From: Escherichia coli | GTDB lineage: Bacteria; Pseudomonadota; Gammaproteobacteria; Enterobacterales; Enterobacteriaceae | Direction: 5' to 3' (one strand) | DNA: 64,000 nt | Assembly: GCF_003018255.1 (NCBI RefSeq) | Contig: NZ_CP027440.1 | Part shown: piece after piece, positions 7,187-38,149 of the stretch | How positions within the stretch are numbered: position 1 is the stretch's first letter | How the letters are laid out: each line of letters opens with the position of its first letter | Position numbers and translations under genes: made by a program | Notes under the pieces: generated by a model | What the model was told of the DNA's origin: nothing | The model's input: only the letters and a program-made list of their open reading frames with translations | The model's database searches: none

Positions 7187-7209
7187 AAGATGCATTTTAA
7201 ATGCATCTT
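7187..7209 (-). promoter_or_regulatory. NsrR operator (11-1-11 palindrome) in the ytfE promoter
   Basis: AAGATGCATTT-T-AAATGCATCTT, perfect inverted repeat 27-49 bp upstream of the ytfE start codon; matches the NsrR binding motif as I remember it. Confidence 0.8.
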
Positions 7210-8340: not shown

Positions 8341-9201
8341 CTAGTTATTAACATTAAAAAGATGGCTTACGCTTTCGGCTAACGTTGTCGTTGGGCGGCC
8401 AATCAATTTGCTAAGCGTTTTGCTGTCATCAAACAGACCGCCTTTCGATGCGCCAACGTCAGAATCCGCCAGCATATCCGCCAGTCCATCAGGCAGTCCG
8501 ACGCTTTTCAGTGCCGCAGCGAAATCAGCTTCGCTCAGGTTTTGATAGGTAACCTGTTTGCCGCTCTGTTTGGTGAGTTCTGCCGCTAACTGTGTCAGCG
8601 TCCAGGCACTATCGCCCGCCAGTTCGTAAACCTTGCCTTCGTGACCGGCTTCGCTAATCACGCGTGCCGCAGCTACCGCATAATCAGCCCGCGTTGCTGA
8701 GGCAATTTTGCCATCGCCTGCGGCACCGATAAATACGCCGTGCTCCAGTGCTGCCGGGGCGCTGGCGAGGTAGTTTTCGGTGTACCAGCCGTTGCGCAGC
8801 AGGGTGTAAACGATGCCAGAATCAGCCAGCATTTTCTCCGTCTCGATGTGCTCATCGGCGAGGCCGAGCGGGGAGGAATCGGCATGTAGCAGGCTGGTAT
8901 AAGCGATAAATTTCACGCCGGCCGCCTTTGCGGCATTAATAACATTACGATGCTGCGGGGCACGTTGACCCACTTCGCTGGAAGAGATCAGCAGTAGTTT
9001 TTCCACTCCCTGAAGTGCAGATGTCAGTGCGGCTTCATCGCCGTAATCAGCCTGACGCACGGTAATGCCTTGTGCTGTCAGTGCCTGTGCTTTTGCCGGA
9101 TTACGAACGATAGCCACTATTTGGCTGGCAGGAACCGTTTTCATCAAGGATTCAATAACATAGTGACCAAGTTGGCCAGTGGCACCAGTAATAGCGATCA
9201 T
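8341..9201 (-). CDS. qorB: NAD(P)H:quinone oxidoreductase QorB (YtfG), NmrA-like
   Basis: 286-aa ORF starting MIAITGATGQLG (Rossmann motif). Confidence 0.85.
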   Translation of the reverse strand: MIAITGATGQLGHYVIESLMKTVPASQIVAIVRNPAKAQALTAQGITVRQADYGDEAALTSALQGVEKLLLISSSEVGQRAPQHRNVINAAKAAGVKFIAYTSLLHADSSPLGLADEHIETEKMLADSGIVYTLLRNGWYTENYLASAPAALEHGVFIGAAGDGKIASATRADYAVAAARVISEAGHEGKVYELAGDSAWTLTQLAAELTKQSGKQVTYQNLSEADFAAALKSVGLPDGLADMLADSDVGASKGGLFDDSKTLSKLIGRPTTTLAESVSHLFNVNN

Positions 9202-9249
9202 GGGAAGTCTCCATCGTTTTGTCTTGTGTTTAAATACGCTAACACTTAA

Positions 9250-9266
9250 ACTTACTTTTAGTAAGT
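9250..9266. promoter_or_regulatory. 7-3-7 inverted repeat in the qorB/ytfH divergent promoter region (candidate YtfH operator)
   Basis: ACTTACT-TTT-AGTAAGT perfect palindrome between the divergent qorB and ytfH starts. Confidence 0.4.
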
Positions 9267-9289
9267 ACGTACAAAAAGGTAAGTATGAG

Positions 9290-9670
9290 ATGAGTCAGGT
9301 TAGCCTGTCGCAACAACTGAAAGAGGGAAATCTCTTCGCTGAACAGTGTCCGTCGCGCGAGGTTTTGAAACACGTCACCAGCCGTTGGGGGGTGTTGATT
9401 CTGGTGGCGCTACGCGAAGGTACTCATCGCTTTAGCGACCTGCGGCGCAAAATCGGCGGGGTGAGTGAAAAGATGCTTGCGCAGTCGTTACAGGCGCTAG
9501 AGCAGGATGGTTTTCTTAACCGTATCGCGTATCCGGTAACGCCGCCGCATGTGGAATATAGCCTCACGCCGCTGGGCGAGCAGGTGAGCGAAAAGGTTGC
9601 TGCACTGGCGGACTGGATTGAGTTGAATTTGCCCGAGGTGTTGGCGGTGCGGGATGAACGTGCGGCGTAG
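9290..9670 (+). CDS. ytfH: HxlR-family transcriptional regulator YtfH
   Basis: ORF track frame 9179..9670; start MSQVSLSQQ at 9290 gives 126 aa; winged-helix HxlR-like. Confidence 0.8.
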   Translation: MSQVSLSQQLKEGNLFAEQCPSREVLKHVTSRWGVLILVALREGTHRFSDLRRKIGGVSEKMLAQSLQALEQDGFLNRIAYPVTPPHVEYSLTPLGEQVSEKVAALADWIELNLPEVLAVRDERAA

Positions 9671-36493: not shown

Positions 36494-38149
36494 TTACTTC
36501 TGTAACCACCAGACAGCCTCAAAAGGCCGTAAAGTCATGGCACAGGGTTGTGGTGAGGCTTCTTCGTAGTTATGCATCACAAGCTGCCAGTTGCCGAGCA
36601 TTTTCCCTGGCTGCCAGGGTTGGGTCTCACGGCTAAGGTTGGCAATGACCAGTAAGGTTTGCCCCTTCCACTCACGGCGATAGCACCACAATACAGGGCT
36701 GTTTGGCAGCAGATCCTGGTAATCGCCCCATGTCAGGACGGCTTCTTGCTTACGCAGTGCGATTAACTTTTGGTAGGTGTAAAACACCGAGGACTCATCG
36801 GCCAGCGCTGCTTCTACGTTGATTTCCTGATAGTTATCGCCCAGGCCAATCCACGGTTCGCCAGCCGTAAACCCGGCATTATCGCCGTTGCTCCATTGCA
36901 TGGGTGTGCGACTGTTGTCACGGGATTTACTGGCGAGGATTGCCAATAACTCGTCGGCATCACGACCATCGTTGCGCAGCTCGGCAAACATATTGAGGCT
37001 CTCCACGTCGCGATAGTCAGTAATGCGCGTGAAATGCGGGTTGGTCATGCCAATCTCTTCGCCCTGGTAGATATACGGCGTTCCCTGCATGCCATGCAGC
37101 ACCATCGCCAGCATTTTTGCCGCAGGCACGCGGTATTCACCTTCATCACCAAAGCGAGAAACAATGCGCGGCTGATCGTGGTTACACCAGAACAAGGCAT
37201 TCCATGCCACGTTGTGCATTCCTTGTTGCCAGTGGCGGAACAATGTTTTCAACGCCACAAAGTCAGGTTTAGCCAGCGTCCATTTTTCACCACTGGGATA
37301 ATCGACTTTCAGGTGATGAAAATTAAAGGTCATCGACAATTCACTGCCTGTCAGTGTCGCATATCGCTGGCAATGCTCAAGGCTGGTGGAGGACATTTCA
37401 CCTACGGTCATTAACCTGCGTGGCGTAAACACATCGCGGTTCATCTCGTGCAAAAACTCGTGTGCTCGTGGCCCGTCGGTGTAGAAGCGACGCCCGTCGC
37501 CATCCAGGTCATCAGGGAAACGCGGGTCTTTGGAGATCAGATTCACCACATCCAGGCGCAACCCGTCGACCCCACGATCGGCCCAGAACTCACAGACTTT
37601 TTTCAGCTCTGCGCGTACCGCTGGATTCTCCCAGTTGAGATCCGCCTGTTCTGGTGCAAAGAGATGCAAATAGTACTGTTCGCTTTCCGCATGCCAGCGC
37701 CACGCACTACCGCCAAATTTTGAACGCCAGTTGTTCGGTGGCGTTTCTGATTCTCCATCGCGCCAGATATAAAACTGGCGGTAAGGGCTTGCTTTGTTCA
37801 GCGCCTCGCGAAACCAGGCATGTTGGGTAGAGGTATGGTTAAACACCATATCGAGAATGATACGAATCCCGCGCGATTTTGCCTGTGTCACCAGTTCGTC
37901 AAAATCGTCCAGCGTGCCGTAGGTGGGATCAATAGCCGTATAGTTCGCTACGTCGTAACCGTTATCAACCTGGGGAGAGACATAAAAGGGGGTTAGCCAG
38001 ATGGCATCAACGCCCAGTTTATGCAGATAGTCCAGGCGCTGGATAACGCCACGTAAATCGCCGGTGCCGCTACCCGTGGTGTCCTGAAAACTCTTTGGAT
38101 AAATCTGGTAGATAACGCCGTTTTGCCACCAGTGGGGAAGATTAGTCAT
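36494..38149 (-). CDS. treC: trehalose-6-phosphate hydrolase
   Basis: ORF 36494..38296; start MTNLPHWWQNGVIYQIYPKSF at 38149 gives 551 aa; GH13 family. Confidence 0.9.
   Translation of the reverse strand: MTNLPHWWQNGVIYQIYPKSFQDTTGSGTGDLRGVIQRLDYLHKLGVDAIWLTPFYVSPQVDNGYDVANYTAIDPTYGTLDDFDELVTQAKSRGIRIILDMVFNHTSTQHAWFREALNKASPYRQFYIWRDGESETPPNNWRSKFGGSAWRWHAESEQYYLHLFAPEQADLNWENPAVRAELKKVCEFWADRGVDGLRLDVVNLISKDPRFPDDLDGDGRRFYTDGPRAHEFLHEMNRDVFTPRRLMTVGEMSSTSLEHCQRYATLTGSELSMTFNFHHLKVDYPSGEKWTLAKPDFVALKTLFRHWQQGMHNVAWNALFWCNHDQPRIVSRFGDEGEYRVPAAKMLAMVLHGMQGTPYIYQGEEIGMTNPHFTRITDYRDVESLNMFAELRNDGRDADELLAILASKSRDNSRTPMQWSNGDNAGFTAGEPWIGLGDNYQEINVEAALADESSVFYTYQKLIALRKQEAVLTWGDYQDLLPNSPVLWCYRREWKGQTLLVIANLSRETQPWQPGKMLGNWQLVMHNYEEASPQPCAMTLRPFEAVWWLQK

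Follow-up and report, generated by a model that had tools for sequence, protein, structure and literature searches.

Thiol-based sensors of the HxlR/DUF24 family have so far been characterised mainly in Gram-positive bacteria. YodB of Bacillus subtilis and QsrR of Staphylococcus aureus are winged-helix dimers with a reactive N-terminal cysteine, which bind short palindromes in adjacent major grooves overlapping the promoters of quinone and azo reductase genes and come off the DNA upon S-alkylation or disulfide formation (PMC8063818); the box recognised by YodB reads TACT-N7-AGTA (PMC8063818). HypR (YybR), also from B. subtilis, recognises a 16-bp 7-2-7 inverted repeat that is found downstream of its own promoter as well, where it serves autorepression (PMC3351151). 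A DUF24/HxlR repressor of a quinone oxidoreductase gene is on record from Corynebacterium glutamicum, in the form of the QorR-qorA pair of Ehira et al. (2009, J Biol Chem), here as cited in PMC3351151 and PMC8524982.

The locus considered here lies in a 64,000-nucleotide stretch of Escherichia coli DNA (the window), in which ytfH, encoding a protein of this family, and qorB, encoding a quinone oxidoreductase, are transcribed divergently. YtfH is assigned to the Pfam family HxlR (PF01638; E 3.4e-32, 110.6 bits against a cut-off of 20.8), and its relatives in the PDB comprise entry 1YYV (E 1e-69), HxlR, HypR, YodB and QsrR. Entry 1YYV is the crystal structure of Salmonella typhimurium YtfH, a direct orthologue (matching over residues 5–122), and the fold is already known; the entry comes from structural genomics and is titled only ‘putative transcriptional regulator’, a title from which neither DNA, ligand nor function can be gathered. 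In some databases, YtfH orthologues from Citrobacter already go by the name ‘QorR’. YtfH has a single cysteine, Cys20, which forms part of a CPS[RH] motif and is found without exception in 81 close and 14 distant homologues. Its position corresponds to that of the N-terminal cysteine that serves as sensor in the DUF24 family, as documented for HypR, YodB and CatR (PMC3351151).

In function, the qorB-ytfH pair comes closest to QorR of C. glutamicum; in the geometry of the operator it is nearest to YodB and QsrR. QorR resembles YtfH in having a single N-terminal cysteine (the sensing C17 in QorR, C20 in YtfH) and is described, in the work that cites it, as responding to thiol oxidants; the C. 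glutamicum protein is not among the close relatives of YtfH, and the likeness is best taken as one of functional analogy. The pattern of the YodB box fits positions 9253–9267 of the window literally, as TACT-TTTAGTA-AGTA. The QsrR box, GTATA-N5-TATAC, has the same 5-5-5 geometry as the CTTAC-N5-GTAAG of the palindrome described below as IR1. Sequence similarity of YodB and QsrR to YtfH is low (E 2e-10 and 5e-4, respectively), and a YodB-type Cys6-Cys101' disulfide is impossible in YtfH, because YtfH has one Cys. The two systems further differ from the present one in controlling several operons, whereas only one site was seen for YtfH in the 64-kb window, and the qorB-ytfH element has two dyads and a pair of invariant direct repeats.

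HypR belongs to the same Pfam family as YtfH, and its Cys14 stands at the same C-P position relative to a conserved Trp. The distance from Cys20 of YtfH to that Trp is 13 residues, which in our own alignment is also the distance for Cys14 of HypR. HypR is an activator, acting on its target from −53 to −95 and using a two-Cys intersubunit disulfide; the putative YtfH site, by contrast, overlaps the predicted core promoter, and knock-down of ytfH indicates repression (see below).

The palindrome and the composite element

Gene identities in this part of the window agree with those of a RefSeq E. coli locus that is 99.3% identical and carries cycA, ytfE, ytfF, qorB, ytfH and cpdB. QorB matches the Pfam NmrA-like family, and the RefSeq annotation for E. 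coli is NAD(P)H:quinone oxidoreductase. The intergenic spacer between qorB and ytfH measures 88 bp. The genes and the elements between them are as follows.

8341–9201, minus strand: qorB (ytfG), NmrA-like NAD(P)H:quinone oxidoreductase; the presumed target
9290–9670, plus strand: ytfH, encoding a 126-aa winged-helix regulator of the HxlR/DUF24 family; its only cysteine, Cys20, lies in a CPSR motif
9250–9266, no strand assigned: IR1, the palindrome first noticed, ACTTACT-TTT-AGTAAGT; conserved form R-CTWAC-T / T-rich spacer / A-GTAAG-T
9266–9285, no strand assigned: IR2, TACGTAC-AAAAAG-GTAAGTA, with near-invariant columns; consensus TACnYAC-N6-GTAAGTA
9249–9285, no strand assigned: putative composite operator region of 37 bp with three GTAAGT-type half-sites

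An earlier note on this DNA had reported a 7-3-7 palindrome between the divergent qorB and ytfH genes, together with its distances from both, and the sequence bears this out. Positions 9250–9266 read ACTTACTTTTAGTAAGT, that is ACTTACT-TTT-AGTAAGT, with 7-nt arms that are exactly complementary across a 3-nt spacer and a complementarity that ends where the arms end; the palindrome lies 23 nt upstream of the ytfH ATG (9290) and 48 nt upstream of the qorB ATG (9201). The description was right as to the palindrome and too narrow as to its extent, since a second dyad, lying over the ribosome-binding site and start of ytfH, makes up the other half of a 37-bp composite. The same holds for the arms: they are present as drawn, but in the conserved core of IR1 the fourth arm position may be either A or T, and 9260, the innermost base of the right arm, varies among orthologues.

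By itself the palindrome is not significant, because nine perfect 7-3-7 palindromes occur in the window where 4.9 ± 2.1 are expected from Markov-1 simulations; perfect inverted repeats with 7-nt arms and spacers of 0–10 number 91 in all. The palindrome exceeds chance because its columns are conserved across genomes, as set out in the next section. Apart from the site at 9250, a search of the 64-kb window for further copies of the motif returned a single match to the IR1 pattern, at 36762–36778 (ATTAACTTTTGGTAGGT), which has three mismatches and is taken as chance. One of the nine 7-3-7 palindromes forms the core of a perfect 11-1-11 palindrome at 7187–7209 (AAGATGCATTT-T-AAATGCATCTT), which precedes the start of ytfE on the minus strand (7160) by 27 nt; we take it to match the NsrR-type operator known for ytfE.

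The composite element contains three half-sites of the GTAAGT type, one inverted (9250–9256) and two direct (9261–9267 and 9279–9285), and its invariant GTAAGTA direct repeats are 18 bp apart. Written as CTWAC-N5-GTAAG, IR1 has half-site centres separated by 10 bp and thus displays the trait of the family, a short inverted repeat (∼15–17 bp) with centres about one helical turn apart. IR2 overlaps the right arm of IR1 by 2 bp and spans the Shine-Dalgarno region of ytfH (AAGG, 9277–9280); within it, TACGTAC (9266–9272) is an imperfect inverted partner of the third half-site. In the register of 5-nt arms the spacers of the two dyads differ, at 5 in IR1 vs 6 in IR2. The full consensus reads RCTWACT-TTT-AGTAAGTACnYAC-N6-GTAAGT, and in each of the substitutions tolerated, at 9253 (T/A), 9270 (T/C) and 9281 (A/T), it is the equivalent base of the CTTAC/GTAAG half-site, the third, that changes.

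Conservation across enteric genomes, distant orthologues and metagenomes

Using the YtfH protein, we collected 80 species-level genome loci from Enterobacteriaceae, Morganella and Proteus, and aligned 79 of their spacers. The qorB gene is divergent from ytfH in 78 of the 80 genomes, and the element lies next to ytfH in every one of the 79 aligned. Of the 36 columns at 9251–9286, 25 show no variation and 31 are conserved at 95% or above, whereas the half of the spacer proximal to qorB (9202–9248) and the first ytfH codons reach a conservation of only 0.4–0.8. A neutral yardstick was provided by 148 4-fold degenerate sites in qorB and ytfH of the same genomes, at which the mean major-allele frequency is 0.63–0.65. 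Since these sites vary and none of the 148 is invariant, the block is constrained far more than the surrounding coding sequence; measured in this way, the putative operator is under very strong purifying selection.

Within IR1 the invariant columns are 9251, 9252, 9254–9256 and 9261–9266, and 9253 is T in 22 and A in 56 of the 79 genomes. The left arm reads ACTAACT in 56 of the 79, with 6 of 7 positions matching, so that only some genera have a perfect palindrome, namely Escherichia, Pseudocitrobacter, most Citrobacter, Superficieibacter, Intestinirhabdus, Salmonella, Morganella and Proteus. Among complete E. coli genomes the element was found in 5406 of 5426, and the polymorphisms inspected in that species sit at 9250, 9269 and 9270, columns that are also variable between genera.

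The right-hand end of the block also carries an ATG, at 9285–9287 within the conserved GTAAGTATG, at which the ytfH reading frame begins in most other genera. In Escherichia this ATG is out of frame (ATG-AGA-TGA) and opens a two-codon mini-ORF (9285–9293) that overlaps the annotated ATG at 9290. The first residues of YtfH, before about residue 6, are correspondingly unconserved.

More remote relatives were represented by 11 protein-anchored orthologues of 50–68% identity, obtained from a representative search and from contig look-ups. The composite element is present in nine of the 11. In eight of these nine the neighbour is a divergent NmrA/qorB-like gene or, for L092, a SnoaL gene, and the contig of the ninth (L085) ends before that neighbour; in the other two orthologues (L086 and L218) the element is absent and no NmrA neighbour was seen. 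Throughout this set the CTWAC, GTAAG, TACnYAC and GTAAGT half-sites are kept and both spacers are free to vary, as in GCTTAC-TTTTG-GTAAGTACGCAC-TTTTTG-GTAAGTA (L082), CTGAC-AAAAG-GTAAGTACCTAC-AAAAAG-GTAAGTA (L088) and GCTAAC-CATGC-GTAAGTACGTAC-CTTGAG-GTAACTA (L217). The variants of the IR2 spacer include TTTTTG, ATAAAG, CTGAAG, ATTCTT, TTTCGG and CTTGAG.

Metagenome contigs were scanned for the core pattern GTAAGTACNYAC-N6-GTAAGT. In 69 of 76 evaluable matches an HxlR gene begins 28–106 nt downstream on the same strand, mostly accompanied by a divergent qorB/NmrA homologue, and at some of these metagenome loci the second dyad is a perfect TACTTAC-N6-GTAAGTA. The left arm of IR1, which lay outside the search pattern, carries 1–1.55 bits per position at 9250–9256 (0.68 at 9253) over 68 distinct contexts, in which there is no information at or before 9249. 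Kept half-sites, free spacers and linkage to a regulator gene together make up the pattern expected of a cognate operator.

The element also accompanies ytfH where the partner gene has been exchanged, be it for the SnoaL gene of L092 or for scs-like thiol-disulfide genes in two enteric genomes, in which at least IR1 is retained. The latter two are Lelliottia nimipressuralis CCUG 25894 (L042) and Enterobacteriaceae RIT714 (L054), and in both qorB is replaced by co-directional DsbA/thioredoxin-like (scsC/scsD-like) genes. IR1 of the Lelliottia locus is a perfect ACTAACT-TTT-AGTTAGT, with both arms changed symmetrically, and its IR2 is decayed; both dyads are kept in RIT714.

Two metagenome contigs (L099 and L107) encode HxlR homologues that are 37% identical to YtfH, with GTAAGTACGCAC-TTTTTT-GTAAGT upstream. 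Neither has a recognisable left arm of IR1, and one has a divergent NmrA-like gene, 30% identical. These two loci suggest that IR2 and the adjacent GTAAGTA may be the older core of the operator.

The element, with its architecture of half-sites and spacers, is thus a strongly selected feature that co-occurs with ytfH-like genes.

Promoters and the predicted action of YtfH

Candidate promoter elements on both sides of the block are listed below.

9236–9244, minus strand: predicted extended −10 of qorB, TGT-TAGCGT, with the hexamer at 9241–9236 and a predicted start near 9229
9259–9264, minus strand: inferred −35 of qorB, TTACTA, with a 17-bp spacer, within IR1; from a consensus PWM only
9224–9252, plus strand: tentative ytfH promoter candidate of this strain, TTGTGT-17-TAAACT

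On the qorB side, columns 9236, 9240, 9241, 9243 and 9244 are invariant in the 79 genomes, and TTACTA-17-TGnTAGCGT is the best minus-strand promoter in 63 of them according to our own, approximate sigma-70 PWM. Among 65 orthologous regions of diverse origin, 56 have a minus-strand TAnnnT at a constant distance of 8 nt from IR1; the only upstream columns with information in these 65 are 9236 (A), 9240 (T) and 9241 (A), and in the enteric set the TG precedes them. Because of this conserved TAnnnT at 8 nt, IR1 is predicted to lie over the −35 and spacer of the qorB promoter, at about −21 to −37, with IR2 further upstream.

On the ytfH side, the candidate −10 in most other genera is TAACTT at 9252–9257, inside the left arm of IR1, and the best plus-strand −10 by the same PWM falls at 9252 in 43 and at 9247 in 18 of the 79 genomes. 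These placements hint that ytfH transcription may start within or just after IR1, which would put IR2 in the leader, over the Shine-Dalgarno sequence.

A strict scan of 9100–9400 for sigma-70 promoters and terminators returned no promoter, and one irrelevant terminator-like site inside qorB. The literature searched yielded no experimental start sites for qorB or ytfH, and the supplements of Kim 2012 do not include these genes. For a constitutive qorB promoter, Shimada 2014 gives the hexamers TCGACA-15-TACATT (PMC3946193); these are absent from both strands of the window between 8000 and 10500.

The sign of regulation cannot be read from family membership alone, because HxlR and HypR are activators. 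Evidence on this point comes from a preprint of December 2025, in which CRISPRi of ytfH raised qorB by log2 4.6 as the sole differentially expressed gene (bioRxiv 10.64898/2025.12.20.695731, supplementary note 6), an effect seen in ∼4% of cells; according to its authors, no ytfH binding data existed. The result is to be read with the caveat that dCas9 sat close to the shared qorB/ytfH promoter region. It supports repression of qorB by YtfH, without mapping a site. Our own search of the literature found no description of YtfH binding or of a binding site and no data on a YtfH inducer, and a whole-word search found nothing on the regulation of qorB.

The earlier note had gone on to propose the palindrome as a candidate operator for the HxlR-family protein YtfH, a suggestion now strengthened by the conservation of the site, its linkage to HxlR genes and its pattern of half-sites and spacers. 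Its choice of ytfH as the local regulator of qorB gains support from the preprint, and its premise that HxlR-type regulators bind short inverted repeats agrees with the geometry of IR1 and with the HypR and YodB boxes. In our judgement it is highly probable that the palindrome is IR1, one dyad of a two-dyad operator (9249–9285) for the neighbouring HxlR/DUF24-type YtfH. The best reading of the data is that this predicted operator serves to repress qorB, and probably ytfH, and that repression is likely relieved by thiol modification.

A mechanism along these lines would run as follows. Dimers of reduced YtfH would occupy both IR1 and IR2. Occupancy of IR1 would block the −35 and spacer of the qorB promoter as well as the −10/+1 region of the ytfH promoter, and occupancy of IR2 would cover the early ytfH leader and its ribosome-binding site; between them, the two dimers would keep qorB silent and let ytfH limit its own expression. 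If YtfH behaves as YodB, QsrR and QorR do, a quinone, some other electrophile or an oxidant would then modify Cys20, whereupon YtfH would leave the DNA and the quinone reductase would be induced.

Other explanations and the meaning of the element

The block might instead be an operator for another transcription factor, either a global one or another redox sensor, with YtfH acting on qorB indirectly. We regard this as quite unlikely. Knock-down of ytfH might, in principle, act on qorB through an intermediary, but the element adjoins ytfH-like genes in proteobacterial metagenomes down to ∼37% protein identity, stays with ytfH when qorB is replaced, and occurs once in the 64-kb window; that qorB alone changed upon knock-down likewise argues for a local, dedicated pair. 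Two motifs recognised by other regulators were considered separately and set aside: a marbox (SoxS/MarA/Rob) does not fit the block, as judged by eye, and the sequence of the GalR-like motif that PMC5110547 places near qorB does not resemble it.

It is very unlikely that the block lacks a dedicated regulator site and owes its conservation solely to the core promoters, Shine-Dalgarno sequences and start codons that overlap where two divergent genes are packed tightly together. Space is certainly short, with candidate −35 and −10 elements and the AAGG Shine-Dalgarno all inside the block, in a spacer of just 88 bp, and with an ATG at 9285–9287 that serves as the ytfH start in most genera. Sigma-70 signals, however, fix few positions (compare the TAnnnT at 9236–9241) and not 25 invariant columns, nor do they arrange three GTAAGT-type copies into dyads. 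The half-sites are also still in place where the start codon and its Shine-Dalgarno sequence have shifted to a distance, as in L082 and at many metagenome loci, and the side of the spacer that holds the qorB ribosome-binding site is much less conserved.

An RNA element in the ytfH 5′ leader, whether through pairing of 9250–9259 with 9274–9284 that hides the Shine-Dalgarno sequence or through the 7-3-7 hairpin acting in the transcript, is hardly credible. Folding of 9240–9300 as RNA does yield a stem, ACUUACUUUU / AAAAGGUAAGU, of −12.7 kcal/mol (z = −2.3 vs shuffles), but this stem lacks covariation: positions 9253 and 9281 vary independently, leaving A opposite A in most genomes and T opposite T in several Citrobacter. 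In L082 the second spacer has become TTTTTG while the first is still TTTTG, which destroys the central pairing and leaves the half-sites intact. An Rfam scan at E ≤ 1 gave no match, the best candidate ytfH promoters start inside or after IR1 and leave its left arm outside the transcript, and the element is conserved where the ytfH start codon sits 40–100 nt further downstream. A cis-regulatory RNA was rejected for this absence of compensatory change and for the break of the helix in L082.

Finally, a functionless chance palindrome in an AT-rich spacer, for which the abundance of perfect 7-3-7 palindromes in the window might speak, is effectively refuted by column conservation far over the 4-fold degenerate baseline in 79 genomes and by the recurrence of the element in distant orthologues and metagenomes.

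Taken as an operator for YtfH, the element looks like one half of a standard-looking DUF24/HxlR repressor-operator pair that guards a quinone reductase gene, and as such it is not surprising. The analysis supplies a precise 37-bp site, its consensus, a predicted qorB promoter and one candidate sensor residue, Cys20. A wider proposal, which we hold only tentatively, is that YtfH may be an enteric HxlR/DUF24 thiol-based sensor of quinones or electrophiles, acting via the single Cys20. Its composite operator would be unusual in that the two dyads overlap and carry their invariant GTAAGTA repeats 18 bp apart, so that a pair of dimers could close off the two divergent promoters and the start of ytfH translation simultaneously. 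If true, one local link would be added, repression by YtfH of qorB and probably of ytfH, and with it possibly a new enteric response to electrophiles or quinones. General concepts would be unchanged, and the finding would help to close one remaining gap in the regulatory map of E. coli.
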